A stretch of 64,000 nucleotides of DNA from Candidatus Latescibacterota bacterium (GTDB lineage Bacteria > Latescibacterota > UBA2968 > UBA8231), in contig OZ253462.1 in assembly GCA_965261395.1 (NCBI GenBank), forward strand, positions 5,952,001 to 6,016,000. The letters run 5' to 3'. Shown one piece after another: positions 36,825-61,511 of the stretch. Each line of letters opens with the position of its first letter. Position 1 is the first letter of the stretch. Both the position numbers and the translations under genes were made by a program. Under the pieces are notes generated by a model. That model searched no databases and was not told the origin of the DNA. It saw only the letters and a program-made list of their open reading frames with translations.

Positions 36825-38222
36825 ATGGGTAAGACCCTGTTGCACAAGGTTTGGGACGCGCATACCGTGCGCGAGCTGCCTTCTGGGCAGACGCAGTTGT
36901 TCGTTGGCCTGCATCTGGTCCACGAGGTGACCAGCCCCCAGGCCTTTCAGATGCTGCGGGAGCGCGGCCTTACCGTCCGCTTCCCGCAGCGCACCTTTGC
37001 CACCGTCGATCACATCGTGCCCACGGATTTGGTGCAGCGGCCTTTTATCGACGACTTGGCCGAGGAGATGATAGACGCGATCGAGCAGAATACCGCCGAG
37101 TTCGAGATCCCGCTGTTCAACATTGACGACCAGCGTCAGGGGGTGGTGCATGTCATCGGCCCAGAGCTAGGGCTGACCCAGCCGGGCATGACCATTGCCT
37201 GCGGCGACAGCCACACTTCGACGCACGGAGCCTTTGGCGCGGTGGCCTTTGGCATTGGCACTAGCCAAGTCCGCGACGTGCTGGCCACCCAGTGCTTGGC
37301 CATGGACCCGCTCAAGGTGCGGCGGATCGAGATCAGCGGCGCGCTGAGCGAGGGGGTGTTCGCCAAGGACGTCATCTTGCACATCATCGGCCAACTCGGA
37401 GTCAAGGGCGGCGTTGGCTACGGCTATGAGTACGGCGGCTCAGTCATTGAGGCCATGTCCATCGAAGAGCGGATGACGGTGTGCAACATGTCGATTGAGG
37501 GCGGTGCCCGGGTCGGCTACGTCAATCCCGACCAGACGACGTACGACTATCTCAACGGGCGGCTCCATGCGCCGCGCAACTTTGATCCCGCGGTCGAGTG
37601 GTGGGAGTCCATGGCCTCGGACGCCAACGCCGAATACGACGACCTAGTGCAAATCGACGGCCGCGAGATCGGCCCGACTGTGACGTGGGGCATTACTCCG
37701 GGCCAATCGGTCGGCATCGGTCAGGCCCTGCCCGAGCTGGACGCTTTTGCCGACGCCGACCGCTCCACCGTCCAGGAGGCCTTCGCGTACATGGACTTTG
37801 AGCCGGGGCAGAAGATCGCCGGCACCAAGGTAGATGTGGCGTTTATCGGCTCCTGCACCAACGGCCGGCTTTCGGATCTGCGCGAGGCAGCTCGGGTCGC
37901 TCGCGGGCGCAAGGTGGCCCCCGGCGTCCGCGCCCTTGTGGTGCCTGGGTCGCAGCAGGTGCGGGCCGCAGCCGAGGCCGAGGGTCTGCACGAGATCTTT
38001 GCGGAGGCGGGGTTCCAGTGGCGGGGAGCAGGCTGCTCTATGTGTTTGGCGATGAACCCCGACAAACTCCAGGGGCGCGAGCTGTGTGCTTCGTCGTCCA
38101 ACCGCAATTTCAAGGGCCGGCAGGGCAGTCCCACCGGCCGCACCCTGCTGATGAGTCCGGCGATGGTCGCCGCGGCGGCGGTGGCTGGCGAGGTGGCGGA
38201 TGTGCGGGAATTGGTGGGGTAG
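36825..38222 (+). CDS. leuC: 3-isopropylmalate dehydratase large subunit
   Basis: [42 protein letters not shown]. Confidence 0.97.
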
Positions 38223-38225
38223 GGG
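38146..38225 (+). repeat. leuC 3' end, duplicated at 41210-41271
   Basis: 38176-38225 is identical to 41222-41271 over 50 nt. Confidence 0.9.
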
Positions 38226-38385
38226 CTATAGTTACTGGTGCGTTTTACAAGACATGTGAATACTCAGACGACTTTGCAGGAACGCTAACTCTCTCTCGGC
38301 TCCAAGCCTCTGGTCTGGGATCGAGGGCGTCTTGCCCTCGAAACACGCTGGACGCCAAAGCCACTCTTCTAAAGAGGTTTCGCAA

Positions 38386-41190
38386 GTGCCACAGACTGCC
38401 GTTTTACATCGTTTTGCCCTGATTTCCGTCCTTGCTTTTTTCGCGATTGTTTCTCAAGTCGAGGCTTATACCTACCATTGGGAAATAGACGAAACGCCGC
38501 AGGGTGCCGAAAGCGCCAGCCTGATTGAGCCGGTACAAGTGGTCTTGTTAGATGACGTGGTCGAGGTGGCGTCGCATAGCGCCTCTTTGCAATTGATGGA
38601 GAAGTATTCGGTGCATCTTGGCACTGAATGGAGCGCAAATCACGCCTATAGTTTGCTGCGCATGTTTGAGTCCATACCTCAAGCCATGAACTATCCGGAC
38701 GACGAAGAGCCTACCGTGCCATCCTCGGTGTGGATGTTGAGCGACCGCCACATACAAAATGACATTGCGGTGGAAATTCGAGACGGTCAGCACATCGTCA
38801 CGCTTGCTCAGGAGGCGTTTACATACGCCGAACCCCTTTTGGCCGAAATTGAGGGCGTGCGCGGCCGGTTTTTCTCTAAAAGACTCCACCGGGTGGTGGT
38901 TCGGTTTGTAACGGACAACGGTGCGGATAGACTGGCGCTGGAACGTATCTTGCAAGAGCGCTACGCCGTCAGTCTAAATGTTCCAGACTATCGCGAACTG
39001 ACAAAGCACACAACCGGCGAGGACGCCGGTCGGTTTATGCCCTTCAAAAATGAAGAGCTGATGGCGCTGGCGTCCATGCTGGAGGAGTTTCCGCAAGGTA
39101 TGCGCCATACGCCGGGGCTGAACTATCTGGTTCGCCGCTTGGATGGCACGCCGCATCCCCTTTATCCAGCCGCAGGTGCTGTGGCGTGGACGAAGTCGGG
39201 CTACATCGAGTTTATGGAATCCGCTTTCAAGGAGGCTGGCCCCGCGTTCATCCATCGCCTGATTCTGCATGAAAAGGCGCACTTTTTGTGGGAGCATCTG
39301 TTTGATGAACAACTCAAAGAGGATTGGATTGAACTTGGTGGCTGGTATAGAACCTCAGAGGGAGCAAATCAAGATTCTGAAAATGCAGACTCAAACTCGG
39401 CCTGCGAAGAGGCGAACTCGCTATTTGCCATCCTTGAGCAGGGGTGTGTTGATGAACTCTTTGCTAGCTATGCCGTCTCAGACGACGCGGATGACTGGGC
39501 AACCACCAAGCAGACTGAGTTTGTCTCGGCGTATGCCCATGCGCACAATCCGGATGAGGATATGGCGGAGAGCATCAGTTTCTACATCGTCAACCCCGAC
39601 AAGCTGCGCTCGCGCTCTCCGGCAAAGTACGAGTTTATCCAAAATCGGATTATGCACGGTACGCGCTATCTATCGCAGATCCGTGAGGACTTGACGTTTA
39701 AGGTGTACAACCTGTATCCCGATGTGGTGTATCCGGGGCGGATTATCCGGGTGGACATACAGGTCGATGGCGAGCCCGAGGAGGATAAGCGAATAACGGT
39801 AGAGATCGAACTCCATAGAGAAAGCGACTTTGATATGGCCCAAGCGTCTTGGGTCCGAGTTTTCAGTGAAAAAGGATCCTATTTTGAGATCGGGATGGGC
39901 CCGATTGGACCCAATGGCAATCACGTCTCTGCGGGGCATATTTTGCGCGGACATCATACCCTTTCCAAGTATGCGGCAAATGGGTACTGGGCCCCAGACC
40001 AAATTACCCTTCGAGATGCTCAGGGCAATGAGCGGCATGAAGCTCAAACGGATTTTGGTTGGAAATTGTATATTGACAATCCGCTCGCGGATGATGAAGC
40101 ACCGATTTATGTCAAAAACTCGATGCGACTCTCTTCACGGGAGGCGACCAAAGGAGGAAGGCCGTATCAAATTGTGACCGCTCGTTGGCAGCTTTTTGAA
40201 GAGAATGGTGTAAACAGGGTCTTGGCGATGCTGAACGATGGGGACTTAGAAACCTATTCTCGTCGTGTGGAAGCCTGGGGAGATTGGTATCCAGAAACCG
40301 GTTATGATCCAGAAACCGGCGAAGCGAGTGTTGCACTCGTGATCCCGGATTACTACCCAAGTGGTATATGGAAACTCAACCATATCGTGATGGAGGATAT
40401 CGCGTTAAACTCTCGGAGTGTATATTTCACCAACTCGGGGATTGATGAGTTGCCGGCCTCTATTAATATCCAGACAAAAAATCCAGATACTACCCCGCCT
40501 GTATTAGATATAAATCAAATTACAATTGAGGCCGAGCCGACCAATCCAGCAGCACCAAACGGTGAAACACAGGTCGATATTAACTTTAGAGTCAAAGATA
40601 ATATTAGCGGATATAGCTCGACGGACATGCTTTTACGCGACCCCCAAGGCGTAGAGCATTTTTTTAGACATCATGGTCCGTCCTTTGACAAAGTCCATTT
40701 CGTCTATTTCTCCGGGGATCCGACGGTTTATCAGACCTATCAGCAGACGATTATCTTGCCGGTCGGCAGCGTCCCCGGTATCTGGGGACTTGCTGAAATG
40801 ACGGTGTGGGACAAGGCGCAGAACAAGCTTCAGGCGAACTTTACCGAGATCGTCCGTTTTGAGGTCGAACCAGCGAGTGCCAAACCGGTGGCGATGGCCG
40901 AGGCGTTGCCCGATGGTCCTCAATTGCAGCAAAACGCGCCCAATCCGTTCAACAGCCAGACCGTCATTCCGTATTTCCTGCTGGAACCGGGTGCAGCGCG
41001 CCTAGAGGTGTTTGCGTTGACCGGACAGCGGGTAGCGGTCTTGAACCAAGGGCCGCAGCAGGCCGGCCACTATCGCCTCCACTGGGATGGTCGCAATCGC
41101 GAGGGCCGTCCGCTGGCCAGTGGCACCTATCTGTATCGACTGGTGACCGCCGAGGGCGTTCTCACGCGCAAGCTCACTCTGCTGCGGTGA
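38386..41190 (+). CDS. Secreted putative zinc metallopeptidase (HEXXH) with FlgD/T9SS-like C-terminal domain
   Basis: Signal peptide (…SQVEA); LILHEKAHFLW, EDMAES; QNAPNPFN…WDGRN…LASGTYLYRL; visibly more AT-rich than its flanks; GTG start inferred from RBS AGAGG. Confidence 0.75.
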   Translation: MPQTAVLHRFALISVLAFFAIVSQVEAYTYHWEIDETPQGAESASLIEPVQVVLLDDVVEVASHSASLQLMEKYSVHLGTEWSANHAYSLLRMFESIPQAMNYPDDEEPTVPSSVWMLSDRHIQNDIAVEIRDGQHIVTLAQEAFTYAEPLLAEIEGVRGRFFSKRLHRVVVRFVTDNGADRLALERILQERYAVSLNVPDYRELTKHTTGEDAGRFMPFKNEELMALASMLEEFPQGMRHTPGLNYLVRRLDGTPHPLYPAAGAVAWTKSGYIEFMESAFKEAGPAFIHRLILHEKAHFLWEHLFDEQLKEDWIELGGWYRTSEGANQDSENADSNSACEEANSLFAILEQGCVDELFASYAVSDDADDWATTKQTEFVSAYAHAHNPDEDMAESISFYIVNPDKLRSRSPAKYEFIQNRIMHGTRYLSQIREDLTFKVYNLYPDVVYPGRIIRVDIQVDGEPEEDKRITVEIELHRESDFDMAQASWVRVFSEKGSYFEIGMGPIGPNGNHVSAGHILRGHHTLSKYAANGYWAPDQITLRDAQGNERHEAQTDFGWKLYIDNPLADDEAPIYVKNSMRLSSREATKGGRPYQIVTARWQLFEENGVNRVLAMLNDGDLETYSRRVEAWGDWYPETGYDPETGEASVALVIPDYYPSGIWKLNHIVMEDIALNSRSVYFTNSGIDELPASINIQTKNPDTTPPVLDINQITIEAEPTNPAAPNGETQVDINFRVKDNISGYSSTDMLLRDPQGVEHFFRHHGPSFDKVHFVYFSGDPTVYQTYQQTIILPVGSVPGIWGLAEMTVWDKAQNKLQANFTEIVRFEVEPASAKPVAMAEALPDGPQLQQNAPNPFNSQTVIPYFLLEPGAARLEVFALTGQRVAVLNQGPQQAGHYRLHWDGRNREGRPLASGTYLYRLVTAEGVLTRKLTLLR

Positions 41191-41209
41191 ATGGCCGCCT
41201 TGAACTACT

Positions 41210-41271
41210 TGCTGAGGAGTCCGGCGGTGGCTGGCGAGGTGGCGGATGTGCGGGAATTGGTGGGGTAGGGG
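41210..41271 (+). pseudogene. Stub of the leuC 3' end (18-nt internal deletion, 1 mismatch)
   Basis: Aligns to 38146-38225 but lacks ATGGTCGCCGCGGCGGCG. Confidence 0.85.
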
Positions 41272-41316
41272 TATCGGGGGATTGTCAAAACGGACCGATT
41301 GCAACGGAGGTATCTG

Positions 41317-41625
41317 ATGACAGAGATGCTCGAAAGCAAGCTCGACGCTATCGCGCAAGCCTGCAAACGCCATGGTGCAACTCGGTTGGATGCCTTTGGA
41401 TCGGCTCTGCGCGATGATTTCCACCCCGGTCAGAGCGACGTGGATCTATTGGTCGAACTTGGCCCGATGGAACCGTATGCGCGAGTCGATGCCTACTTCG
41501 GCCTGCTGGAAGACCTCAGAGCTATACTAGGAAAGCAGGTTGATCTGGTCGTTTTAGGAGCTGTGAAGAACCGCTATATCGCTCGCGACATTGAGCAGAC
41601 GAAGCAATTGTTGTATGCCGCGTGA
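41317..41625 (+). CDS. Minimal nucleotidyltransferase (MntA-like antitoxin); no HEPN partner
   Basis: FGSALRDDF…SDVDLLVE…VDLV…KNRY; RBS GGAGG. Confidence 0.88.
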   Translation: MTEMLESKLDAIAQACKRHGATRLDAFGSALRDDFHPGQSDVDLLVELGPMEPYARVDAYFGLLEDLRAILGKQVDLVVLGAVKNRYIARDIEQTKQLLYAA

Positions 41626-41645
41626 TGCAAAAGGAGACAAACGTG

Positions 41646-41852
41646 ATGAACGAATCAGCAATCCGACTCCGTATTGAGCCCTTAGAAAAAGGTGGCTTTC
41701 TCGCCACGAGCCCTGATGTCCCGGGCTTGGTTGCGGAAGGACGTAGCGTCACCGAGGCCGCTGAGATTGCACAAGGTCTCGTACGCAAAATTGCAGAGTC
41801 GTGCATTGAACACGGCGACCCGCTTCCTAGCGCATTGGCAAGTATTCCATGA
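41646..41852 (+). CDS. HicB family antitoxin; no HicA partner
   Basis: GGFLATSPDVPGLVAEGRSVTEA…HGDPLP; RBS AAGGAG. Confidence 0.8.
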   Translation: MNESAIRLRIEPLEKGGFLATSPDVPGLVAEGRSVTEAAEIAQGLVRKIAESCIEHGDPLPSALASIP

Positions 41853-41920
41853 GAGGGGCCAAGGAATGAAGGGCTGTGAAGCTGAGACCGTTCAATTGTA
41901 GGTGCATTTAAGGAGACACA

Positions 41921-42526
41921 ATGGAAAATTCGAGTGTGATTAAGACAATAACTGGCCGCAGCGTGGTGGTGCGCGGAGCTGATATTGATACCGACCGCAT
42001 CATCCCGGCTCGTTTTTTGCGGACGGTGACCTTTGAGAATTTGGGGGGCCATGCCTTTGAGGACGATCGCGCGGCTGGCGATCATCCCTTTGATCAGGCG
42101 CGCTTCCAGGGGGCGTCGATCCTATTGGCCAATGCCAATTTTGGTTGCGGGTCCTCGCGTGAACACGCGCCGCAGGCCCTGATGCGCTGGGGTATCAAAG
42201 GCTTTATCGCCGAGTCCTTTGCCGAGATTTTCTTTGGCAACTGCATCGCCATGGGGCTGCCCTGTGTGCGAATTTCGGCTGAGGACATGCAGACTTTGAT
42301 GGATGCGGTCGAGAGCGATCCGGCGCAGGAGGTGGCCATTGACCTCGAAGCGCGGCAGGTGCGCTGGGCCGACGGCCAAGCTGCTGCCGATATTGCCGAC
42401 GGCCCGCGAGAGCAGTTTCTCAAGGGGGGCTGGGACTCGCTGGGCCAGCTTTTGGACGCCGGCGACCAGATCGGCCAGACCGCCGCCCGCCTGCCCTATA
42501 CTCGCGCCTTTGCTACTGCCGACTAG
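41921..42526 (+). CDS. leuD: 3-isopropylmalate dehydratase small subunit
   Basis: DIDTDRIIPARFL, NFGCGSSREHAP, SFAEIFFGN. Confidence 0.97.
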   Translation: MENSSVIKTITGRSVVVRGADIDTDRIIPARFLRTVTFENLGGHAFEDDRAAGDHPFDQARFQGASILLANANFGCGSSREHAPQALMRWGIKGFIAESFAEIFFGNCIAMGLPCVRISAEDMQTLMDAVESDPAQEVAIDLEARQVRWADGQAAADIADGPREQFLKGGWDSLGQLLDAGDQIGQTAARLPYTRAFATAD

Positions 42527-42573
42527 ATATGTACAACTGCACAACGGATGAATCTTAACTTGGGAGATAATAA

Positions 42574-43632: not shown

Positions 43633-43654
43633 GGCGATGGAAGGAAGCGACACC

Positions 43655-51412: not shown

Positions 51413-54400
51413 AAGGCGCACTTGCCTGCTCGCAGGCCAACTCGAACACCCTGTCGGTCATCCAGCGCTTGAAACCCTCGTTGTCCATGAACTGCTTGAA
51501 GAGTTCGGTGTCGTCCTTCATGACGTTCGTCATGACCCGCAGCAGCGCCTTGTCGTGCTCGATGCGGGAGTTGGCGGCGTCCGAGTTCTGCCGCGCATTC
51601 TTGAAGGCAGCGTCCGCGGCCACCCGGGACGGGATGGTCTTGGTGATGAGTTCCCCCACGCGGTCGGCATCCTCCCAGTCGATGTCGCCGAACAGATCGT
51701 TGAACGTCCTGAGAATATTCGACAGCCGGTCCAGCTCTGGTTCCGGCACGTGCCCTCCGCCGCTGGTCGGCACCGGCTCGACTTCGGCGTCCTCGTCCAG
51801 CAGCAGAATCTGCTGCATGGCTTGCTTCTCGACCCGGTAGCTGTCGAGGTCGATGGCGTCGAGGATGCCCTTCGACAGGTCCTCTTCCTCGGGGGCTGGC
51901 AGCTTGGGGATCAGGAAGTTCAGGAAGATCGAGCGCTTCTCCCACCCGGCGTCGTTGTAGGGAAGCACGGACGACAGAAAGGCGTAGGTGCGCGCGAATC
52001 CCTTGGCGTTGCCTTTGAACTCCACTTGGCCGTCCTCGTCCAGATCGCGCTTGTAGGCCGCCACGCAGGCGTCGAGGATTGGGTCGAGCTGGTCGCGCTG
52101 GGCACCGCCGAGGTAGCGCTCGACGAAGTCGTCGATCTGCTCGTCGGAATAGACTTGGGCGCGGTCTAGGTCCGTCTGCAGGTCGTGCAGCTTATTGGGG
52201 TCGGTCTCGTCGGCTAGGATGGTCGCGCGGTAGTAATCGGCGAAGGCGGCGCGGATGGTGTCGGCGTCGTTGAAGAAATCGAGCACGAACACGTCGTGTT
52301 TCTTGGGATGCGCTCGGTTGAGGCGGGAGAGGGTCTGCACCGCCTTGATGTCGGACAGCGTCTTGTCCACGTACATCGTATGCAGCAGTGGTTCGTCGTA
52401 CCCGGTCTGGAACTTGTCGGCGCAGACTAGGAAGCGGTAGGGGTCTTCTTGGAACTGCCCGGCGATCTGGGTGGAGGAAAAGCCGTTCAGCGAGGCTTCG
52501 GTGACCTTCTCGCCGCCGAACTCGTGCTCGCCGGAGAAGGCGACGATAGCCCGGTAGCGGCTCTTGCGCTGCTGCAGGTAGTCGCTGATTGCGTGGTAGT
52601 ACTGGATCGCCCGCTCGATGCCGTTGGTGACCACCATTGCCCGCGCTGCGCCGCCGATCCTGTTCTGCGCCAGCACTTGGTCGTGGAAGTGATCGACCAT
52701 GATCTGGGCCTTGAGTTCAATCGCGTGATCGCTCCCCTCGACGAAGCGGCGCAGCTTCTTCTGGGCCTTCTTGACGTCGAACTCTGGGTCCTGCTCCACT
52801 GTTTTGGCGAGTTTGTAATAGCTCTGCACTGGCATGTAGTGGGCGAGCACGTCGAGGATGAACCCCTCTTGGATCGCCTGCTTCATGGTGTAGCTGTGGA
52901 AGGCGTGGTGCCTGACCGTGCCATCGGGCTGTGGGGCTGGGGCACCGAAGATTTCCAGCGTCTTGTTCTTGGGGGTGGCGGTGAAGGCGAAGTAGCTGGC
53001 GTTGGGGAGCAGCTTGCGCGACTCCATCAGGCGATTGATCCGGTCCTCGAAGGTTTCTTCCTCCTCCTCTGCACCTGCCTCGGAGAGCGCCTGCGCCATG
53101 GCCGCACCGGTGCGGCCGCCCTGGCTGGAGTGGGCCTCGTCGATGATGATGGCGAAGCTGCGTCTGCGTTGCTCGTTGCCGATTTCGTCGAGGATGAAGG
53201 GGAATTTCTGGATCGTCGAGATGATGATCTTCTTGCCGCTCTCGATGAACCGGCGCAGGTCGCCCGAGCGGTCGGCGTGTCCCACGGTCGCCGACACTTG
53301 GGAATACTGTTTGATCGTGTCGCGGATCTGCCGGTCGAGGATGAGGCGGTCGGTGACGACGAGGATTGAGTCGAAGACCGGACCGCCGTCCTTCTCCAGC
53401 CCGATTAGTTGGTGGGCCAGCCAGGCGATGGAGTTGCTCTTGCCGCTGCCGGCCGAGTGTTGGATCAGGTAGCGACGGCCTACGCCGTGGGCACGTGCGT
53501 CGGCCAGCAGGTGGCGCACCACGTCGAGTTGATGATAGCGCGGCCAGATCTGGGTCTGCTTCTTCTTGCCCGTCTTCTCGTCCTTCGCCTCTACCACTTG
53601 GGCGTAGTTCTCTAGGATGTTGGTCAGGCTCTCCCGGGGGAGCACTTCCCGCCACAGGTAGTCGATCGCTAGCCCGTTGGGATTGGGTGGGTTGCCGGCA
53701 CCGTCGTTCCAGCCTCGGTTGAAGGGGAGGAACCAGGAGGCCTTGCCGCTGAGGTGGGTGCAGAAGCGGATCTCGCTTTCGTCCAGTGCGAAGTGGGCGA
53801 CGCAGCGGCCGAACTCAAACAGTTTCTCGCGCGGGTTGCGGTCGCGCTGATACTGCTGGACGGCGTCGGCCACCGTCTGCTTGGTGAGGCTGTTCTTTAG
53901 CTCAAAGGTGAAGACTGGCAGGCCGTTGATGAACAGGCCGATGTCGAGCGCTCGCTGGGTTTCGTCGCGGCTGTAGCGAAGCTGGCGGGTGACTGTGAAG
54001 CGGTTCTGTTTGAAGCGCTCCTGCGCTTCTGGGTTGTCGGCCGAAGGCGTGCCGTAGAATAGGTCTAGGTTGTGCGCTTCGTGCTTGATGCCGTGGCGCA
54101 GCACGTCGATGGTGCCGCGCTTGCTGATTTCGCCCTGGAGGCGGGCAAGGAACCGGCGGCGCGTGGGGCTGGCCTGGCCCGGTAGGGGCGACCGGCCGGT
54201 CGCCCCTACATGGGTGGATGCTATGCCAACGGCCTCCGCAACCTCGGGTTGGGTGGCGTGTAGGAAGGCGGAAAGCTGGGCCAGATCGACGCAGTATTCG
54301 CGGTCGTAGTCGTGGAAGTTGCCGCCGGCCCAACCGACTCCGCCGTAGCGGGCAGGTGGCTCGCCCACGGTGGGACCTGGAGGTGGGTCGCAAGGATGGC

Positions 54401-54458
54401 CGGCTAAGGCCGTGCAGATGAGGCGTTCGAGGCCGCGTTCGGTGGTATCGGTGGGCAC
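51411..54458 (-). CDS. hsdR: Type I restriction endonuclease subunit R
   Basis: DIGLFINGLPVFTFELK nuclease motif, QHSAGSGKS, IIDEAHSSQ, AFTATPK, KFQTGYDEP, QTLSRLNR. Confidence 0.96.
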   Translation of the reverse strand: MPTDTTERGLERLICTALAGHPCDPPPGPTVGEPPARYGGVGWAGGNFHDYDREYCVDLAQLSAFLHATQPEVAEAVGIASTHVGATGRSPLPGQASPTRRRFLARLQGEISKRGTIDVLRHGIKHEAHNLDLFYGTPSADNPEAQERFKQNRFTVTRQLRYSRDETQRALDIGLFINGLPVFTFELKNSLTKQTVADAVQQYQRDRNPREKLFEFGRCVAHFALDESEIRFCTHLSGKASWFLPFNRGWNDGAGNPPNPNGLAIDYLWREVLPRESLTNILENYAQVVEAKDEKTGKKKQTQIWPRYHQLDVVRHLLADARAHGVGRRYLIQHSAGSGKSNSIAWLAHQLIGLEKDGGPVFDSILVVTDRLILDRQIRDTIKQYSQVSATVGHADRSGDLRRFIESGKKIIISTIQKFPFILDEIGNEQRRRSFAIIIDEAHSSQGGRTGAAMAQALSEAGAEEEEETFEDRINRLMESRKLLPNASYFAFTATPKNKTLEIFGAPAPQPDGTVRHHAFHSYTMKQAIQEGFILDVLAHYMPVQSYYKLAKTVEQDPEFDVKKAQKKLRRFVEGSDHAIELKAQIMVDHFHDQVLAQNRIGGAARAMVVTNGIERAIQYYHAISDYLQQRKSRYRAIVAFSGEHEFGGEKVTEASLNGFSSTQIAGQFQEDPYRFLVCADKFQTGYDEPLLHTMYVDKTLSDIKAVQTLSRLNRAHPKKHDVFVLDFFNDADTIRAAFADYYRATILADETDPNKLHDLQTDLDRAQVYSDEQIDDFVERYLGGAQRDQLDPILDACVAAYKRDLDEDGQVEFKGNAKGFARTYAFLSSVLPYNDAGWEKRSIFLNFLIPKLPAPEEEDLSKGILDAIDLDSYRVEKQAMQQILLLDEDAEVEPVPTSGGGHVPEPELDRLSNILRTFNDLFGDIDWEDADRVGELITKTIPSRVAADAAFKNARQNSDAANSRIEHDKALLRVMTNVMKDDTELFKQFMDNEGFKRWMTDRVFELACEQASAP
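54182..54209. repeat. REP copy 2, in frame inside hsdR
   Basis: Exact 28-bp palindrome, translated as VGATGRSPL. Confidence 0.92.
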
Positions 54459-54466
54459 TGTGAAGA

Positions 54467-54880
54467 CTACCGGTCCGTGAACGGGTTTATGACCCGGAGG
54501 CCATCGTAGTCCTGTTCCGAACTGAGGTCCTCAGAATAGATCACGTCGCAGCCGAGGGTCCGGGCTGCGGCAAGGATCGCGCCGTCCCAATAAGACAGCC
54601 GAAAGCGTCGGCTGATGGCCACGGCCTCGAGAAAAACGTCCATCGTCATGGTCTGAATCCGGAACAGCAGAATCGGCTCTAGGAATTGCAATGCTCTATT
54701 GCCAGAAAGACTGCGGATCCGTGTCGGCCGGGTGGCTTGGTGATAGAACTCCTGCAGCACCTGAACGGACGCGGCGAGGTCGGGTTCTGTCAGGACTTCC
54801 AGCGCCCGCGCCCGCTTGTCGGCCTCCTCCGGGACCTCGCTGACAGCGTACAGCAGGACATTGGTATCTACGAATCGCAT
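54467..54880 (-). CDS. PIN-domain (VapC-like) toxin
   Basis: FVDTNVLLY, QVLQEF, LSYWDG, IYSEDL, INPF. Confidence 0.92.
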   Translation of the reverse strand: MRFVDTNVLLYAVSEVPEEADKRARALEVLTEPDLAASVQVLQEFYHQATRPTRIRSLSGNRALQFLEPILLFRIQTMTMDVFLEAVAISRRFRLSYWDGAILAAARTLGCDVIYSEDLSSEQDYDGLRVINPFTDR

Positions 54881-55230
54881 GGCGAGGTTTTGAGTGCTTC
54901 GGAGATGCTGCGCTGCCGCTCGCGCTCGGCGACAGCCTCGGCCCTTGCCGCGACGCGGTCGTACAACGCCTCTCTGGGCAGGTTGTCGGACATCCGCAAC
55001 CCAATACCCTGACTATCGAAGTCCGCGAGTACTTCCCGCAGCAGCCTGCACCGACGCTGATAGATGGTTTCGCTAGACCCGGCACTGGCTTCGCCCCCCG
55101 CATCCGGCTCCGCCGCCAGATGTCTCAGGTAGTCTCGCACGAGGGCCGATACCGAGGTGTCCAACTCCGCCGCCCGGATGCGGGCGAGCCGGTGGGTCTG
55201 TTCGTCGATGGATACAGTGATGTTTTTCAT
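54868..55230 (-). CDS. Ribbon-helix-helix antitoxin (CopG/DUF6364-like)
   Basis: MKNITVSIDEQTHRLARIRAAELDTSVSALVRDYL; REALYDR; overlaps the PIN gene. Confidence 0.85.
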   Translation of the reverse strand: MKNITVSIDEQTHRLARIRAAELDTSVSALVRDYLRHLAAEPDAGGEASAGSSETIYQRRCRLLREVLADFDSQGIGLRMSDNLPREALYDRVAARAEAVAERERQRSISEALKTSPCDS

Positions 55231-55241
55231 AGTCGCAGCCT

Positions 55242-55298
55242 CACAGTTTCTGTGTAGCACAATATAGATGCTCATTGGCCTATGGGCAACACATGTGT
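55242..55298 (-). promoter_or_regulatory. Promoter and palindromic operators of the RHH-PIN pair
   Basis: Minus strand TTGCCC (55289-55284), 17-nt spacer, TATATT (55266-55261); palindromes CACAG-N3-CTGTG (55242-55254) and ACACATGTGT (55289-55298). Confidence 0.6.
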
Positions 55299-55339
55299 AC
55301 TCTTCTGCCGATTCTTCGGCGTCCGCTAGGCACCTAGCG

Positions 55340-55567
55340 TCAAATCGTAACTGTGTAGTGGTTCACCACAACCGAATCCGCCGCCAGATCACCATCCCGC
55401 TCAAGCTCATCGAGATACAGCCTGATCGCGTCGGCGACCAGGTCATGCACCTCATCCTCGGTCTCCCCGGCAACCCCGATGCCCGGAAGCTCCGGTACAT
55501 AGGCTCCATACGCTCCGAGGCCGTATTTCTCTACAATGACCAGATACTCAGTCTGTGCCATCTTCAC
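55340..55567 (-). CDS. HicB family antitoxin
   Basis: YLVIVEK…YGAYVPELPGIGVAGETEDEV…AIRLYL. Confidence 0.85.
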   Translation of the reverse strand: MKMAQTEYLVIVEKYGLGAYGAYVPELPGIGVAGETEDEVHDLVADAIRLYLDELERDGDLAADSVVVNHYTVTI

Positions 55568-55670
55568 CCTCCTTGTAGTTCTCTTTCAAGCCGGCTTGTT
55601 TGAGCACTTGAACCTGCGCCGTGCAGATGAGGCGTTTGGGGCCGCGTTCAGAGGTGTCGGTGGTGGTCAC
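55548..55670 (-). pseudogene. Chimeric remnant: hsdR 5' stub fused to a HicA-like 3' end
   Basis: Reads MTTTDTSERGPKRLICTA-QVQVLKQAGLK…; 55618-55663 is 41/46 identical to 54409-54454; VLKQAGLK resembles HicA C-termini. Confidence 0.75.
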
Positions 55671-55686
55671 GCTATCTCTTCCGTAT

Positions 55687-55773
55687 TCAGATCGGGACTT
55701 TCCTAGAGGCCCAAGCTCCGCTGATCTTCTTGGGGTTTCGTTCCACTGCTGGGCAGGTGCTCCAGTCCGTCAT
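55687..55773 (-). pseudogene. Truncated DUF433-like antitoxin (28 aa)
   Basis: MTDWSTCPAVERNPKKISGAW then diverges; ATGA overlap with the hsdS stop. Confidence 0.65.
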
Positions 55774-57215
55774 ACGGTCACCTCCTCGGCGACTTTGAGT
55801 TCGCCGAGATTTGAATTCTCCCCATCATGGATTGTACCGTCCAAGTCGTCTTCCGCAAGCGGATCCACTTCTGGTAATTCAGCCGCCGCCTCGCGCACAT
55901 CGAGCTTGCCGGTGACGACATCGGCGATGAGGCGGGTGTGGTATTCCTGGAGGAGGGCGATCTGGCGGCGAGTAGCGGTAACAGCGGCGGCGAGTCGTTC
56001 GGTATGTGCTCGAATTTCAGCGAGAATATGTTGCTGTTCTGAGATAGTAGGCAAAACAATCTTAAAGTTGCGAATTGAGTGCAATGTCAGTCCTTCACGG
56101 GATGCCCCATTTTGTTCAAAGCGTATCTCGCGTTGCATGAAGGCAGTAGATAAGAATGAAGCCAAGAAGCCAGAGAGCAGACGATTCTTCTTAGGTCTAA
56201 TGATGCAAACATGCTGACTCACGTTACCCTCTGAAAAGTGATCGGGCACAAAGCAGACGCGTCCGATAGAAGCTCCAGTTATATTCAGCAGAACATCACC
56301 GGGTTTCACATGCGTATTTGAAAGCGATTGATGAAGCCTTGGTGTTATTCGCGCAACGCCTTCGAGGTGGAGTCCGTCAAAATGGATGTTCTGACTTCGG
56401 AGGAATGGAATTCCAGCCTCTTGATATACAGTTGCCCCACCACGGGGAGTAACACCGCTACCAAACTTTGTCGCTAAATATCCTAGCGCGACCACCTCCC
56501 AATGTGCTGGCACATCGCCGAGTCCTTCTACACCCGAAGGCTTGAGGCGGACGTTGGGGTCGAGGCCGCGGGTGACGGCGCTATGGATGATGGCCTGCTT
56601 CTGCTCCTCCAGCAGCGCAATCAGCTTCTGCTTGGCGCGGATGTAGCGCTGGATGCGCCGGTCGGCGTGGTCGAGGAAGCGGACGATGGCGGTTTGTTCC
56701 TCGGTGGGCGGTTTTGGGAAGGGCTCACATTTCAAAAGCTCCATTGGAATCCGCATGCGGTGAGACAAAATACCGTTGCCGATACGAACAAGACTCTCCT
56801 GAAACGGCTTCGTCTGAAAGCAGGCGTTCAGATATCGAGGATCATCATCATCCGACCGCCTTGTAAGCACGTAATACACTGGACTGAGGCATCCCGTGTA
56901 ACGTGATAGTCCGACGGACCCGATAATGACATTCATGCAGTTCACTACGATGTCATCAGGCCTCACGACTTTGTATCTGGTGATGTCCTCTGACATCTTA
57001 TTGCCAATGTTGCCCTTCTCAGAATAGGGAATAACGCCTCGGTCTCGCAGTACCGAGAGAACTTTATCGACATGCCGATTGCTGTTCACCTCACCACGCT
57101 CCTGTAGGAGAGCCCCGAGTCGAGGGAGTTCCCAGTGCTCCGGCACCTCCCCCAGCCATTCTACGCCGGAGTCCTTATAGGCAGGATAGGGTTTGAGATC
57201 TGAGGTCATCATCAT
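55770..57215 (-). CDS. hsdS: Type I RM specificity subunit S (start uncertain, 57209-57224)
   Basis: YKDSGVEWLGEVPEHW, PPTEEQTAIVRFLD, LKPSGVEGLGDVPAHW, VVTGKLDVR; two AT-richer TRDs. Confidence 0.95.
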   Translation of the reverse strand: MMMTSDLKPYPAYKDSGVEWLGEVPEHWELPRLGALLQERGEVNSNRHVDKVLSVLRDRGVIPYSEKGNIGNKMSEDITRYKVVRPDDIVVNCMNVIIGSVGLSRYTGCLSPVYYVLTRRSDDDDPRYLNACFQTKPFQESLVRIGNGILSHRMRIPMELLKCEPFPKPPTEEQTAIVRFLDHADRRIQRYIRAKQKLIALLEEQKQAIIHSAVTRGLDPNVRLKPSGVEGLGDVPAHWEVVALGYLATKFGSGVTPRGGATVYQEAGIPFLRSQNIHFDGLHLEGVARITPRLHQSLSNTHVKPGDVLLNITGASIGRVCFVPDHFSEGNVSQHVCIIRPKKNRLLSGFLASFLSTAFMQREIRFEQNGASREGLTLHSIRNFKIVLPTISEQQHILAEIRAHTERLAAAVTATRRQIALLQEYHTRLIADVVTGKLDVREAAAELPEVDPLAEDDLDGTIHDGENSNLGELKVAEEVTV

Positions 57216-57225
57216 ATTCACCAAT

Positions 57226-57310
57226 GTAGGGGCGACCGGCCGGTCGCCCCTACGCCGAATGGGGACACCGTTCGTTTTATGTCTTGTTCGGTCGCCCCTA
57301 CGCCGAATGG
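57226..57310. repeat. REP copy 3 (57226-57253) plus a 22-nt direct repeat carrying a half REP (57241-57262 / 57289-57310)
   Basis: Exact palindrome; CGGTCGCCCCTACGCCGAATGG occurs twice. Confidence 0.9.
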
Positions 57311-57313
57311 ATC

Positions 57314-57853
57314 CTAGCCGTCCCTAACGGCAGGATTCTCTGGGTCTTCCGACCATCTGGCCGGGTTATCCGCGATGTATTGCCGAATCTGATCCAGCGC
57401 GGATTCGTTCCGGATAACGTGTTCGTAGTAATTGCGCTGCCAGACCGATGCACCGGTCGTGCCACGCATTGTGTTGATGCGTTTGGTTGCGGCAGATTTG
57501 AATCCGGCCATCATCGCGCCGAGAGACCTAGGTCGTGGCCCGCTAGGGGCGACCGGCCGGTCGCCCCTACAGCGGTCGTCGGTAATAATGACGATACCAT
57601 GAACATGATTGGGCATTACAACCCAGGCGTCTAGTTCGATCTCGATGCGGATCCGTGCAGATTTTAACCATTCCTCTGCGGCTATCCGGCCCAATTCGTT
57701 CAGTTCCACCTCATCATCAATCGCTTCGCCAAACAGTAATTCCCGCCCGTATGTGCAGACGGTGATAAAGTATGCGCCTGCTCGTGAATAGTCGTAGTTG
57801 TGCAATCGGATCGACCGACGGTGATGTTTCTCCGGATCGTAGGAGGCGTTCAC
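57314..57853 (-). mobile_element. REP-associated tyrosine transposase (RAYT/TnpA-REP, Y1 HUH family)
   Basis: HRRSIRL…YDYS…YFITVCT, HUH motif MPNHVHGI, WQRNYYEHVIRN, YIADNP. Confidence 0.92.
57543..57570. repeat. REP copy 4, inside the RAYT coding sequence (27/28 match)
   Basis: CTAGGGGCGACCGGCCGGTCGCCCCTAC, translated as RGDRPVAP. Confidence 0.9.
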
Positions 57854-59823
57854 TATGCCCTCAAAATCTCGTCCAACAACCCCTCGGTCTCCTTTTCCAA
57901 CGCTCGGATGTCAGCCCGAATCTCCGCCAGCGTTCGCATCGGCTGGGGCTTGTAGAAATATCGGGTAAAGCTGATCTCGTAGCCGATCCTCACGCTGTCT
58001 GGTTGATACCAGGCGTCAGCGGCATAGGGCAGAACCTCCCGCCGCAGGAACGCTTCGATGCCACCTTCCTCTTGCAGCGGAATCTGCTCGGTGTCGCGCA
58101 GGTCGGTGTCCGGTTCGTATTCCACCACGACGGGCTTGCCGTTGACGGTGGCATCGAACCGGCCGCGCAGCGGGTCGGCCTCTGTGCCTCGCTTGTGGAT
58201 CTTCTTGATGACCGGCGGCGCGGTTTCGCTGCGCTCGCAACTCTCCTTCAGCTTCTTGATCTCGGCGGCCTTGTAGGCGCAGTTGGGGTCAGCCCCTTCA
58301 AGTCGCAGCGGCCGTTCGACCGTCACCTTATAGTAGCCGAGGGCGGCATTGTCGAAGATCTTGCTCTGCTCGCTCTCCTCAAAGGCGAGGAAGGTGTCGC
58401 AGATGCGCTGGATGTCCTCCTCGCCGAGCTCGCAGTTTTTCTTGCCCAAGTTTTTGCGCAGCGGCTGATACCACTCAGTGGCGTCGATCAACTGCACCTT
58501 ACCTTGGCGATGCTCCGGCTTGCGGTTGGTGAGCACCCAGACGTAGGTGGCGATGCCGGTGTTGTAGAACATGTTGAGCGGCAGGGCGACGATCGCCTCC
58601 AGCCAGTCGTTCTCAATGATCCAGCGGCGGATGTTGCTCTCGCCCTGCCCGGCGTCGCCGGTAAATAGGGAACTGCCGTTGTGTACCTCGGCGATGCGGC
58701 TGCCGCCCTGCTTCATCTTGGAGAGCTTGTTGGCGAGAAAGAGCATCTGGCCGTCGCTGGAACGGGTGACCAGGGAATACTCGGGATCGTCGGCGTGCTC
58801 GATCACGAAGCGCGGGTCGCGCATGTCGCTCTTGCCGCCCATGCGCTCCAAATCGGTCTTCCAACTCTTGCCGTAGGGCGGATTGGAGAGCATGAAGTCG
58901 AACTCGCGGGATGGGAAGGCGTCGTTGGCCAGGGTGGAGTGCTCCGGGCCGCCTACGATATTGTCAGCGGCGTCCCCTTCACCCTTCAGCAGCAGGTCGG
59001 CCTTGCAGATGGCGTAGGTCTCGGCATTGATCTCCTGGCCGTAGAGGTGGGTGGAAACTTCCTTGCCGCGTTCGGTGGCGAGCTGCTGAAGCACGTCCTC
59101 GGCCACGGTCAGCATGCCGCCGGTGCCGCAGGCCCCGTCGTAAATCAGGTAGGTGCCGGACTTGATCTGGTCGGCGACGGGCAGGAAGACCAGCTTCGCC
59201 ATCAGGGTCACGGCGTCGCGCGGGGTCCAGTGTTCGCCCGCCTCCTCGTTGTTATCCTCGTTGAAGCGCCGGATCAGTTCCTCGAAAATCGTGCCCATGC
59301 CGTGGTTGTCGAGGCCGGGGTGCCTGACCGTGCCGTCGGCGTTGCGCACCGGGGCCGGGCTCAGGTTGATGTCGGGCGAGGTCAGTTTCTCGATCAGCGT
59401 GCCCAAGGCGTCGGCGCGGGACAGTCGCGAAATCTGGTTGCGGAACTCGAAGTTTTCGAGGATGTCCTGGACGTTGGGCGAGAACCCGTCGAGCCAAGCC
59501 CGGAAGTCGGCTTCGAGCTGCTGGCGATTGGCGCGGGCGCGCAGGTCGCGCAGAGTGAACTTGGAGGTATTGTAGAAGGCTTGTCCCGCGATCTGCCGCA
59601 GGGTCGCATCCTGTTCGATGATGCCGGCGTCGTCGAGGGTGGTCTTCATGTCGAGGACCGCCTGCTTGCTGTCCTCCAGCACCGCATCGAGTCGGCGCAG
59701 CACGGTCATCGGCAGGATCACGTCGCGGTACTTGCCGCGCACGTACAGGTCGCGCAGGACGTCGTCGGCGATGCCCCAAATGTAATTCGCGATCCAGTTC
59801 AGGTCGGTGTTGCTGGTCTTCAT
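57853..59823 (-). CDS. hsdM: Type I RM methyltransferase subunit M
   Basis: IWGIADDVLR, EAGEHWTPRD, YDGACGTGGML, NPPY, FYNTGIATY. Confidence 0.96.
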   Translation of the reverse strand: MKTSNTDLNWIANYIWGIADDVLRDLYVRGKYRDVILPMTVLRRLDAVLEDSKQAVLDMKTTLDDAGIIEQDATLRQIAGQAFYNTSKFTLRDLRARANRQQLEADFRAWLDGFSPNVQDILENFEFRNQISRLSRADALGTLIEKLTSPDINLSPAPVRNADGTVRHPGLDNHGMGTIFEELIRRFNEDNNEEAGEHWTPRDAVTLMAKLVFLPVADQIKSGTYLIYDGACGTGGMLTVAEDVLQQLATERGKEVSTHLYGQEINAETYAICKADLLLKGEGDAADNIVGGPEHSTLANDAFPSREFDFMLSNPPYGKSWKTDLERMGGKSDMRDPRFVIEHADDPEYSLVTRSSDGQMLFLANKLSKMKQGGSRIAEVHNGSSLFTGDAGQGESNIRRWIIENDWLEAIVALPLNMFYNTGIATYVWVLTNRKPEHRQGKVQLIDATEWYQPLRKNLGKKNCELGEEDIQRICDTFLAFEESEQSKIFDNAALGYYKVTVERPLRLEGADPNCAYKAAEIKKLKESCERSETAPPVIKKIHKRGTEADPLRGRFDATVNGKPVVVEYEPDTDLRDTEQIPLQEEGGIEAFLRREVLPYAADAWYQPDSVRIGYEISFTRYFYKPQPMRTLAEIRADIRALEKETEGLLDEILRA

Positions 59824-59838
59824 TGGGATTCCTGTACT

Positions 59839-59894
59839 GTAGGGGCGACCGGCCGGTCGCCCCTACGGGTGGTTAAATCATTACGGGTGGTTAA
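59839..59894. repeat. REP copy 5 (59839-59866) with an adjoining 13-nt direct repeat
   Basis: Exact palindrome; TACGGGTGGTTAA at 59864-59876 and 59882-59894. Confidence 0.9.
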
Positions 59895-59927
59895 GGCAAT
59901 TAGAATAAGGCCAAACGGGTGCTTTAG

Positions 59928-61511
59928 CTATGCTGCGACAAAGCGCTCGATGACGTTGGCGGTAATGCGCGAGACGGTCTCGTCCACGAGAATCGAGGCG
60001 GGATAGGTGATGGAGCCGACGGAAAAAACCGCACCGCCGCTCGCCGTCTCGTAGTGGACGATTTCCGCGCCGCCGCGGTCCGGGTTGAGGCCGCGGGCGA
60101 TGATTTCGGTGCCGGGGGGCGAAAAGGGCGAGGTCTTGTCGGTCTCGTGGCCGGAGGCGCCGCCGGGGACCCGCTCGTGCAGGCTGGCCGCGCCAAAGGC
60201 ATCGCCGTTTTTGACGCCCGTGTTGGCGAAAATCCAGTGGTCGGCGGCGAGGACTTGATACGGCGCGGACGTCATAATGCCCGCAAGGGTACAGACCACG
60301 CCGAGCAGGTTGGCCTCGGACTCGTGGTACTGGTGAAAGCGGCTCTCGTAGCCCTCGGCCTGCTGGACGCGCATGTCGCCGTTTTTGACCTTCATCGTCT
60401 GCTCGTCGAGTAGCTCCACTTCGCAGTTTAGGCCGTTGCCTCCCAAGTACATGAGTTTGCCGCCGCGCTCGCGCACCCACGCCTTGAGGTCGTAGTACAT
60501 TTTGCGCGACCAGTACTCGGGATGGGTGGTGATTATGAGGACTTTGTACTGATCGAGGTCGAGCTGGCCAAAGTGCAATTGGGTCTCGGCGTACAGGTCG
60601 TAGGAAAGCCCCTCGCGCTCTAGCCAGCCGAGGAAGCGCCACTCGGCCGGGGCCACGTGAGAGGCGGAGCGTCCCGCGATGGGGTCGGTGATCTGGGCGT
60701 GCTCGGGAACGTGGTTGATCGGTTCGGGCCGGTCGAAGGAGAGGGGGGCGTAGTCCTCGGCGTCGAAGTTGATGTGATCGGGGTCGGTGTAGCGCTTCAG
60801 CTCTAGGCGGGCATTGATCGTCGGCGTGGGCGGAAAGCAGTCGGGGTGGATGTAGTTGGAGCGCCCGCCAAAATTGTTGTACGCGTTCCAGTTGATGTTG
60901 GCGGCGAGCACCGCGATGTCCGCGCTGGGGGCGGCTGGGGCGACGATCCAGGGAAAGGAGAAGAACGCGCCGGACTCGCCTTTGGCGTGGAAGTAGTAGA
61001 GGCCAGAGCGCTCCGGCGCGGTGACGAACTGTTTGTGGGTGGGGCTAGTGTAACCAAACTTGTTCCACATGATCCCGGTTTGCGTGTAGTCGCCGTCTGG
61101 AGTGATCTGCATGGTGGCGCGCGGCCCGTGCTCGTCGAACCAGCCCAGCGGGCGGATGTGCTCTTTTTGCCAGCCGTAGCGCCACAAATCGAGGCGGTAG
61201 GCTTCGAGCGCGTGGACGCGGAACTCGGATTGCTCGCCCGCTTGGACCCACTTGGGCCAGGCGTAGCCGAGCAACTGATGAGCGAGCAAGCGGAAGTGGT
61301 GCGGCCGGTCGGGGTGGATGTTGACCTGCCCGCGCTTGGGGCCGAAGCCGTCTTTTTGCAAGGTCACGGTGTAGGGGCCGGGGGGAATGTCGGCGAAGAC
61401 CTCGCCGGTGGCCCGCGAGCGGGTTTCGAGGTGCAGGTTTTCGTTGGCGAGTTCGAACTGCACGTCGTGTAGGGCGATGTAGCGTTCGTCGCTGACGTAG
61501 CCGATTAGCAT
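59928..61511 (-). CDS. N,N-dimethylformamidase beta-subunit-like protein with a short N-terminal beta-sandwich
   Basis: SGLYYFH, WNAYNNFGGRSNY, LSFDRP, HPEYWS, LMYLGGN, GHETD, GGAVFSVGSI. Confidence 0.75.
   Translation of the reverse strand: MLIGYVSDERYIALHDVQFELANENLHLETRSRATGEVFADIPPGPYTVTLQKDGFGPKRGQVNIHPDRPHHFRLLAHQLLGYAWPKWVQAGEQSEFRVHALEAYRLDLWRYGWQKEHIRPLGWFDEHGPRATMQITPDGDYTQTGIMWNKFGYTSPTHKQFVTAPERSGLYYFHAKGESGAFFSFPWIVAPAAPSADIAVLAANINWNAYNNFGGRSNYIHPDCFPPTPTINARLELKRYTDPDHINFDAEDYAPLSFDRPEPINHVPEHAQITDPIAGRSASHVAPAEWRFLGWLEREGLSYDLYAETQLHFGQLDLDQYKVLIITTHPEYWSRKMYYDLKAWVRERGGKLMYLGGNGLNCEVELLDEQTMKVKNGDMRVQQAEGYESRFHQYHESEANLLGVVCTLAGIMTSAPYQVLAADHWIFANTGVKNGDAFGAASLHERVPGGASGHETDKTSPFSPPGTEIIARGLNPDRGGAEIVHYETASGGAVFSVGSITYPASILVDETVSRITANVIERFVAA

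Follow-up and report, generated by a model that had tools for sequence, protein, structure and literature searches.

Duplicated gene ends flank accessory genes in the conserved gene rows of a Candidatus Latescibacterota lineage

To our knowledge, most chromosomal hotspots of gene gain in bacteria lack mobile-element genes, and the first entry of cargo into them is poorly documented. Integrative elements that insert into gene ends, such as e14 and phage 21 in icd or the dusA-specific islands, bring a replacement end for the gene, encode an integrase and use a fixed core. Here we analyse 64,000 nt of a Candidatus Latescibacterota bacterium (GCA_965261395.1, contig OZ253462.1, positions 5,952,001-6,016,000 of the forward strand; this whole stretch is called the window), where accessory genes lie between the duplicated ends of conserved genes. 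As with those elements, the gene is intact and its displaced end is found as a direct repeat across the inserted DNA, but we found neither an integrase nor a fixed core.

Comparable structures have been described in the absence of site-specific enzymes. In E. coli conjugation, the main product was a Campbell-type single crossover of a circular molecule, which duplicated the anchor over 109-950 bp in 56 of 60 clones and left direct repeats around the cargo, one complete and one truncated (PMC3240628). The repeats discussed here are shorter, 35-232 nt, and the events are natural and old; in contrast to that circular molecule, neither a plasmid nor a circle is known here, the cargo consists of chromosomal accessory genes and the host belongs to an uncultured phylum. 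Homology-facilitated illegitimate recombination (HFIR), as cited in PMC5361080 and PMC3240628, likewise combines one homologous anchor with one illegitimate joint, at variable positions and with no recombinase, but it is expected to lose recipient DNA by the anchor, whereas here the anchor end is duplicated. Also similar are the displacement arrays formed by the C-terminal displacement of Rhs proteins and by the orphan immunity genes and effector ends of the T6SS (type VI secretion system) in Vibrio cholerae, where new cargo comes to lie behind an unchanging gene, the earlier ends are displaced downstream and become orphans, and growth proceeds through repeated events with no integrase (PMC5361080). 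In our case, however, the constant parts are borders of housekeeping and hsd genes, at both 3' and 5' ends, and the cargo comprises toxin-antitoxin (TA), restriction-modification (RM), REP-associated tyrosine transposase (RAYT; REP, repetitive extragenic palindrome) and secreted-protein genes, with stubs of 35-232 nt that are probably read as linkers. Finally, TgvAB in Vibrio pathogenicity island 2 (VPI-2) of V. cholerae exemplifies extra defence or TA genes placed between the hsd genes of a complete type I system; the accessible part of that work (PMC11411939) describes no duplicated hsd ends, whereas here a stub marks each embedded cassette and a RAYT gene is among the embedded genes. The logic of the locus is common to these known systems, from which it differs by its 3' and 5' housekeeping and hsd borders, its very short repeats and its stubs serving as read-through linkers; on present evidence, it does not represent a new type of mobile element.

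An earlier note, made from the letters of this DNA alone, had described three captures of accessory genes, each leaving a duplicated gene-end stub on one side of the cargo, with no integrase, DDE transposase or tRNA attachment (att) site; as to the stubs, their coordinates and these absences it was right. In self-comparison of the window, the three repeats score 204, 91.5 and 61.7 bits, beyond the best self-match of each of 30 dinucleotide shuffles of the same DNA (45.5 bits at most). In all three events the anchor end is duplicated, with one copy completing the intact conserved gene, and continuous with it, and the other standing as a stub beyond the cargo (Table 1). Domain scans of 49 open reading frames (ORFs; 28 + 21) spread across the whole window revealed no integrase and no DDE transposase, and the window contains no tRNA, no transfer-messenger RNA and no Rfam family, the region upstream of queF being likewise blank. 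Nor does the window resemble an integron: there is no integrase or Rfam match, and the repeats are gene ends, not attC hairpins. Our preferred reading, with a probability of roughly 0.55, is that additive recombination at conserved gene borders, working without a dedicated recombinase, left the three structures behind, each time combining one homologous exchange with one illegitimate joint. The observation itself is solid and lineage-wide, and two of the three events are inherited, not recent.

The accessory genes are threaded into a whole row of housekeeping genes. By Pfam scan of its ORFs, the window carries on the + strand ilvC, leuA, leuC, leuD, leuB, a cimA-like gene, argJ, an aminotransferase gene and accA; queC, a DMFA2_C-like gene and queF come next, on the - strand. 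Species-representative genomes were scanned with QueF, and 10 kb of flank were kept, giving 27 loci (L001-L027; QueF identity 87-97%) whose synteny with the window is high. By title, 22 of them belong to Candidatus Latescibacterota, four to Gemmatimonadota/-etes and one to Rhodothermales, and 14 are complete chromosomes. In this lineage the gaps queC|DMFA2-like, DMFA2-like|queF, hsdM|hsdS|hsdR, cimA|argJ and leuC|leuD are hotspots.

Event 1 lies in the leuC|leuD gap. The core of its repeat (38176-38225 and 41222-41271) is identical in 50 of 50 nt, and the gapped alignment extends to 38146-38229 and 41210-41274, with two mismatches in the upstream 19 nt and 18 nt missing from the stub. The latter forms a mini-ORF whose ATG abuts the stop of the cargo gene (TGAATG), keeps the leuC frame, the 18-nt deletion being in frame, and terminates at the stop codon duplicated from leuC. 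GC content is 0.527 in the cargo segment (38230-41209), against 0.61 for the window, and the 952-aa ORF of this segment likely starts at a GTG near 38386, after which a signal-like segment can be read. This gene is absent from 80 related loci and, sorting tail aside, has no paralogue in the window or in those loci; relatives of the protein at 83-94% identity are found elsewhere in genomes of the clade. Event 1 is private to this genome, and is the only one of the three that is. Between its stub and leuD, the MntA-like and HicB-like genes form an older cassette with no stub. Nine of the 12 assessable relatives have only 10-18 nt between leuC and leuD, and two (L009 and L016) contain the MntA cassette alone. 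The partner gene in this cassette has been swapped, being HicB-like in the window and a different, longer gene in those two loci. A scan of 38100-42000 found promoters and terminators to be no more numerous than in shuffled DNA.

Events 2 and 3 are nested. In event 2, an islet of 8.6 kb between the DMFA2-like gene and queF contains, in order of transcription, hsdM, a RAYT-like gene, hsdS, a HicB-like gene, a ribbon-helix-helix (RHH) antitoxin gene, a PIN-domain vapC and hsdR. The type I RM trio of hsdM, hsdS and hsdR is complete by Pfam, with NCBIfam matches of hsdR and hsdM below their cut-offs. The two copies of repeat 2 align over 152 columns at 90.1%, or over 138 nt ungapped at 92%, and comprise the final 115 nt of the DMFA2_C-like gene, its stop and ca. 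37 nt of spacer; the stub can be read as a mini-ORF of 38 codons (51298-51414) whose TTG start overlaps the hsdR stop (TTGA). In event 3, inside this islet, it is the 5' end of hsdR that is repeated on both sides of a TA cargo (54409-54454 and 55618-55663, 41 of 46 nt; once a one-codon indel is allowed, the similarity extends to the GTG start). This stub, too, forms a mini-ORF, of 40 codons, which keeps its GTG and stops 14 nt inside the HicB-like gene.

The gap between the DMFA2-like gene and queF is occupied in 19 of the 26 assessable loci, by hsd islets, vapBC alone, a RAYT gene alone or unrelated DNA, and is empty in the other seven, with 60-70 nt between the two genes. All 19 occupied loci have a 3' piece of the DMFA2-like gene ahead of queF, which measures at least 98 nt in 11 of them, 62-97 nt in four and 38-46 nt in another four. 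The hsdR|stub junction of the window is identical base for base at the joint in at least eight loci (L001, L002, L004, L009, L011, L019, L020 and L022), and the region of its hsdR 5' stub is identical over 81 of 81 nt in L004. Because the hsdR|stub junction and the hsdR 5' stub are common to other species, events 2 and 3 are old shared structures, inherited and not recently captured by this genome. Stacking is seen in L004, where three copies of the hsdR 5' end follow one another, each separated from the next by different cargo, and the edges of the hsdR stubs differ among loci (+51, +52, +57 and +88). The proposal that this is a systematic route for stacking genes into operon gaps holds to the extent that TA, RM and other accessory genes are stacked lineage-wide in conserved rows, but not in regarding events 2 and 3 as captures by this genome. 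These shared junctions also bear on the reality of the assembly. The source may be a metagenome assembly and event 1 is known from this window only, as could be expected from strain-chimeric joins; however, independent assemblies, some of them titled complete chromosomes (L004, L013 and L019), also show the stubs of events 2 and 3, and the novel junctions share no long k-mer able to mislead an assembler. We consider an assembly artefact extremely improbable.

The same geometry is found at other junctions of the related loci. Between cimA and argJ, cargo of ParE-type or Fic plus HEPN-type TA genes, or of unknown kind, lies between 35-41-nt repeats of the cimA end in L003, L007, L017, L021 and L022, the repeat of L017 reaching into argJ, and remnants of older cargo are present in L019 and L022. 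Between queC and the DMFA2-like gene, a 4-kb cargo with genes for a 900-aa methylase and a partner is flanked by repeats of 60 nt in L006 and of 232 nt, covering both gene ends, in L015. Repeat lengths across events range from 35 to 232 nt. The arrangement typical of displacement arrays, in which displaced ends and their older cargo line up behind an unchanging part of a gene, is seen for hsdR in L004 and for cimA|argJ in L019 and L022. Overall, the cargo in relatives includes TA genes of ParE, Fic, HEPN, PIN and DUF433 type, methylases, Uma2, AAA-ATPase/PD-(D/E)XK genes and UvrD-like helicases.

Could these repeats be the attL and attR of elements that carry a replacement gene end, integrated by a site-specific recombinase acting in trans or since lost? 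The geometry matches that of gene-end-targeting integrative elements and, at cimA|argJ, the same left junction and similar ends accompany different cargo in five loci (L003, L007, L019, L021 and L022), with identical repeat copies in L003, L007 and L022. However, there is no integrase in the 49 ORFs of the window nor among 100 ORFs scanned from the cargo of the relatives (57 of 72 listed plus 43 of 51 listed), where a single DDE transposase appeared, in L018. Likewise, the length of the repeats and the four different hsdR junctions are at odds with a fixed crossover site, and a core search retrieved no common stretch of at least 10 nt among the repeat classes. The shared left junction at cimA|argJ is the exception, and is also explained by common descent; the cassette-end motifs are confined to this gap, fitting descent from a single insertion. 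An att core with an integrase was the competing explanation that the earlier note had named, and the search returned neither. Because junction positions vary and no att core is shared, illegitimate plus homologous recombination is favoured over site-specific recombination, which is distinctly unlikely. The core search had a single hit, a GC-rich 9-mer, GCGGCGGTG, shared by the left edges of repeats 1 and 2 (38170-38184 and 60030-60042), probably by chance.

The cimA|argJ cassettes (L003, 15887-16541; L007, 15905-16558; L022, 14616-15885) share end sequences and a leader ORF that runs into the cimA stub. We considered whether their end motifs could be the ends of a general element, and rejected this, as the motifs are found at no other junction. 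A more speculative interpretation is that conserved borders are reusable docking sites of a dedicated cassette-insertion process, comparable to integron stacking without the integron integrase, in which the border would be copied afresh at each insertion and the breaks would come from the resident RAYT or another trans-acting enzyme. Such a process is hinted at by the cimA|argJ cassettes, because of their conserved ends, their leader ORF into the stub, their different cargo and their repeat copies that are identical within, and different between, L003, L007 and L022; we nevertheless hold it to be unlikely. If true, both the upstream reading frame and the downstream translation start would survive each insertion.

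In the additive recombination that we prefer, incoming DNA in which other cargo adjoins the same conserved gene would pair with that gene. A homologous exchange plus an illegitimate joint would then add the cargo with no replacement of resident DNA, either by a Campbell-type single crossover of a circularised fragment or by a one-ended exchange bridging sister chromatids; transforming DNA can bridge sister chromatids and produce duplications (PMC3784515). The gene border would thereby be duplicated, one copy completing the gene and the other being left as a stub past the cargo, and the stubs would correspond to gene ends because homology between alleles with different cargo stops at gene ends. 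Once finished, the unit could spread, or be replaced, through ordinary homologous recombination in the flanking genes, and could be lost cleanly by recombination between the two copies. Stubs would last where they carry the translation start region of the next gene or its coupling, and decay elsewhere. The pathway of recombination, and a circular or inter-chromatid intermediate, are what we infer; what is observed is cargo lying between direct repeats of a homologous segment, one copy truncated and the gene kept intact, as in Campbell-type products. In an unrooted four-gene tree of 21 taxa, empty sites (L015; L023 with L006 and L014) are nested among occupied ones, which fits clean loss through the repeats or replacement by an empty allele, two processes that would look alike.

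HFIR had been put forward as the origin of the three structures, and its ingredients are indeed present: one end is joined through a long homologous anchor, the cargo running on that side without a break into an intact conserved gene, and the opposite end lacks long homology and has variable positions. In its classical form, natural transformation would bring a linear fragment that recombines with a single duplex through an anchor in the conserved gene and through a microhomology joint at its far end, a mechanism already suggested for comparable arrays of displaced T6SS effector-immunity genes and Rhs tips (PMC5361080). However, its expected product is a deletion of recipient DNA (PMC3240628), whereas the recipient DNA beside the anchor is here duplicated, not deleted or replaced. 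Besides, on one duplex the resident anchor end can either pair with the donor or remain as a stub, but not both, except where pairing ends before the border is reached or a sister chromatid takes part. We consider classical HFIR unlikely as the mechanism.

Several observations weigh against additive recombination of this kind. We saw no circle and no empty and filled alleles in one population, and the material comes from one window of this genome. Insertions without stubs exist, as illustrated by the MntA cassette at leuC|leuD (window, L009 and L016) and by 12 of 12 enlarged leuD|leuB gaps, where the leuD end is replaced and not duplicated; therefore, the stub is not an obligatory product. Within each of L003, L007 and L022 the two cimA repeat copies match at 100%, but from one of these genomes to another they diverge at synonymous sites, so that either gene conversion or a fresh border duplication at each insertion is needed. 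This pattern is not predicted by a plain single crossover with a foreign allele and looks more like fresh target duplication or gene conversion. Comparison of alleles, suggested beforehand as a way to tell the resident end from the donated one, gave a divided answer for the DMFA2-like gene: the two closest full-length protein relatives (91%) have the intact-type C-terminus, and stub-type residues are scattered among more distant relatives, singly in P0003 and P0005, so that the resident and the incoming copy are not told apart. In an alignment of 26 DMFA2-end copies, the stubs of different genomes form no obvious clade by eye.

In addition, some stubs in relatives are deletion scars and not footprints of insertion (L005, L020, L021 and L024), affecting hsdR, hsdM, hsdS, vapB and vapC. 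For instance, L005 has lost hsdR from codon 3 into the stub, L021 has lost hsdM and the RAYT gene between two REPs, L024 contains 5' remnants of vapB, hsdM and hsdS in series, and five loci have a 7-codon vapC 5' remnant ahead of hsdR. The clear scars in L005, L021 and L024, together with these vapC remnants, give some weight to two related scenarios, in which either a slippage tandem duplication of the gene junction came first and served as a harmless landing site, or second gene copies, e.g. of an hsd system, were trimmed to stubs; the 232-nt repeat of L015, which spans both gene ends, is also tandem-duplication-like. However, leuC, cimA, queC and the DMFA2-like gene are single in each locus, with no trace of a second gene body, stubs are always at the exact far edge of the cargo, and no bare tandem duplication without cargo was seen among the empty-site loci. 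We therefore regard duplication first or scars as a rather unlikely general origin.

The hsd islet contains a gene that the earlier note had overlooked, coding for a RAYT-like Y1/HUH transposase. Its product matches NCBIfam REP_Tyr_transpos (E 3e-19; 69.2 bits, with a cut-off of 80) and, partially, Pfam Y1_Tnp, and HVH and YYEH motifs, corresponding to the HUH motif and the catalytic tyrosine of the Y1 fold, are present by reading. There are five copies of a REP palindrome in the window, against none expected, and four of them are in the islet, where the RAYT gene is flanked by its own REPs. This apparently single HUH transposase gene with palindromic REPs on both sides is comparable to described REP/RAYT systems (PMC5581495), although here it is part of a type I RM operon, with a start-stop overlap with hsdM, and REPs are found in frame in both the RAYT gene and hsdR. 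RAYT genes also occur at the same hotspot in L013 and L024, each after an hsdS 5' remnant; these two have long peptide-repeat insertions at the place where the RAYT of the window holds its in-frame REP.

It had been suggested that RAYT nicking at REP hairpins primes the captures. In favour of this are the RAYT genes of the islet and of L013 and L024, the REP 26 nt from repeat 2a, the fact that almost all the true REPs of the relatives, counted up to 10 kb from queF, are inside the islet, and the REPs placed exactly at truncated stubs in L012, L016 and L021, with a REP-to-REP deletion in L021. The claim that REPs lie near the anchor was confirmed for event 2, and for event 3 in that one is inside hsdR, but not for event 1, which has no REP near it and just a 7-bp hairpin (38322-38340), found by reading. 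Furthermore, the joints of events 1 and 3 lack a REP, as does every cimA|argJ and queC|DMFA2 event of the related loci, the event-2 repeat is present without a REP in L022, and the hsdR REP is a later insertion, found only in the window and in L004 (7044-7065), i.e. in two of the nine hsdR genes compared. Because of these absences, RAYT priming is not supported by the window and the related loci, and we consider it very unlikely. Additionally, L007 has around 4790 an apparently unoccupied REP site ahead of hsdM, and L013 (1047-1069) and L021 have a REP variant with a different loop; therefore, REPs come and go at this spot. In all, REPs seem to reside in the islet and to act in secondary changes there, and not to have produced the primary joints.

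All three stubs of the window are in-frame mini-ORFs, as judged from ORF reading. Likewise, an ORF runs through each of the six cimA stubs examined and terminates at the former cimA stop, which precedes the argJ ATG by 5 nt (in L001, it overlaps the ATG); in the case of L001 and L021, it is the cargo gene that continues into the stub as a fusion. The ribosome-binding region of argJ is within the last codons of cimA and, therefore, a viable insertion there must keep two copies of this stretch. In contrast, queF has its own 60-nt leader, and the stub ahead of it decays, with substitutions spread over codon positions and common indels. Pairwise differences by codon position amount to 329/258/517, plus 242 gap columns, for DMFA2 stubs and to 99/86/637, plus 39 gap columns, for functional copies, so the stubs are under relaxed evolution. 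In several loci the stub has been cut to a few dozen bases, yet 10 of 12 long stubs are still open. We infer that stubs keep downstream translation signals, which may be the basis of their selection. The interval from the DMFA2 stop to the queF ribosome-binding site holds an inverted repeat (window, 51261-51300), with arms of ca. 7 bp and a 20-nt loop, that is conserved in L001-L026; it is inside the duplicated segment, its 3' arm has been lost in the copy beside hsdM, and it has no Rfam match.

This locus and its relatives form a dense natural series, from empty sites and young insertions with perfect repeats to decaying stubs, stacked arrays and deletion scars, all from one lineage and with several members on complete chromosomes. 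They indicate that operons whose genes are coupled in translation can take in accessory and defence genes and still stay intact, since a second copy of the gene border arises and is read as a short ORF. The signature, a gene-end duplicate across accessory DNA, can be searched for genome-wide to date and count gene gains that occur without an integrase, and a possible dependence of stub persistence on the translation of the next gene could be tested as the reason why stubs endure at some borders and decay at others.

Table 1. Features of the three events and their surroundings, in window coordinates.
Feature	Coordinates	Strand	Basis	Remarks
leuC, aconitase-family large subunit	36819-38222	+	Pfam Aconitase E 1e-167	Intact anchor of event 1
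Repeat 1a	38146-38229	+	Sequence self-comparison	Last 77 nt of leuC and stop-proximal bases
Cargo 1, 952-aa ORF	38332-41190	+	Pfam FlgD_ig; NCBIfam Por_Secre_tail E 7e-8	Type IX secretion system (T9SS) type A sorting tail
leuC 3' stub	41191-41268	+	ORF reading	25-codon mini-ORF; repeat 1b, 41210-41274
MntA-like nucleotidyltransferase gene	41299-41625	+	Domain scans
HicB-like gene	41622-41852	+	Domain scans
leuD	41921-42526	+	Pfam Aconitase_C
queF, preQ1 synthase	50879-51238	-	NCBIfam QueF-II E 5e-51	Conserved gene downstream of islet
DMFA2-like 3' stub	51261-51414	-	Self-comparison	Repeat 2b, 51261-51412
hsdR, type I restriction subunit	51411-54458	-	Pfam HSDR_N/ResIII/SWI2_SNF2
REP palindrome	54182-54209			Inside hsdR; in-frame insertion of 14 aa
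Repeat 3a	54409-54458	-	Self-comparison	First 50 nt of hsdR
PIN-domain vapC	54467-54880	-	Domain scan	Cargo 3 (whole cargo, 54467-55561)
RHH-type antitoxin gene	54868-55230	-	Domain scan	Cargo 3
HicB-like gene	55340-55561	-	Domain scan	Cargo 3
hsdR 5' stub	55548-55670	-	Self-comparison, ORF reading	Repeat 3b, 55618-55670, with own GTG
hsdS	55770-57224	-	Pfam Methylase_S
REP palindrome	57226-57253			Between RAYT gene and hsdS; half-copy just upstream
RAYT-like Y1/HUH transposase gene	57314-57853	-		Between hsdM and hsdS; GTG overlaps hsdM stop
REP palindrome	57544-57570			In frame inside RAYT ORF, between HUH and Tyr motifs
hsdM	57853-59823	-	Pfam N6_Mtase, HsdM_N
REP palindrome	59839-59866			26 nt beyond repeat 2a, 15 nt before hsdM start
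Repeat 2a	59892-60042	-	Self-comparison	Last 115 nt of DMFA2_C-like gene and ca. 37 nt of spacer
DMFA2_C-like gene	59928-61511	-	Pfam DMFA2_C E 2e-55	Intact anchor of event 2
queC	61515-62675	-	Pfam QueC	Upstream of DMFA2_C-like gene

The DMFA2_C-like gene, which has a CarboxypepD_reg N-terminus, is conserved in the clade between queC and queF (L005-L026; in the window, 59928-62675 and 50879-51238). In empty-site loci it directly adjoins both genes, a position that points to a function connected with 7-deazaguanine metabolism. An ORF for an M24 peptidase overlaps the long queC ORF (62183-62675), and the queC start is therefore probably later. The upstream half of the window contains other long direct repeats, because three DUF6785/DUF6784 paralogues are found there (4110-6044, 12969-14963 and 28785-30707).

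Other parts of the row also vary among loci. The GFO_IDH_MocA oxidoreductase gene between DUF5343 and accA (48727-49866) is absent in L006, L014, L017, L019, L022, L024 and L027, and a Uma2 gene is found instead in L015 and L023. Beyond argJ, AAA-ATPase_like and PDDEXK_9 genes form tandem arrays of two or three, with copies that are 88-90% identical (L006, 15901-19143; L014, 14890-19770).

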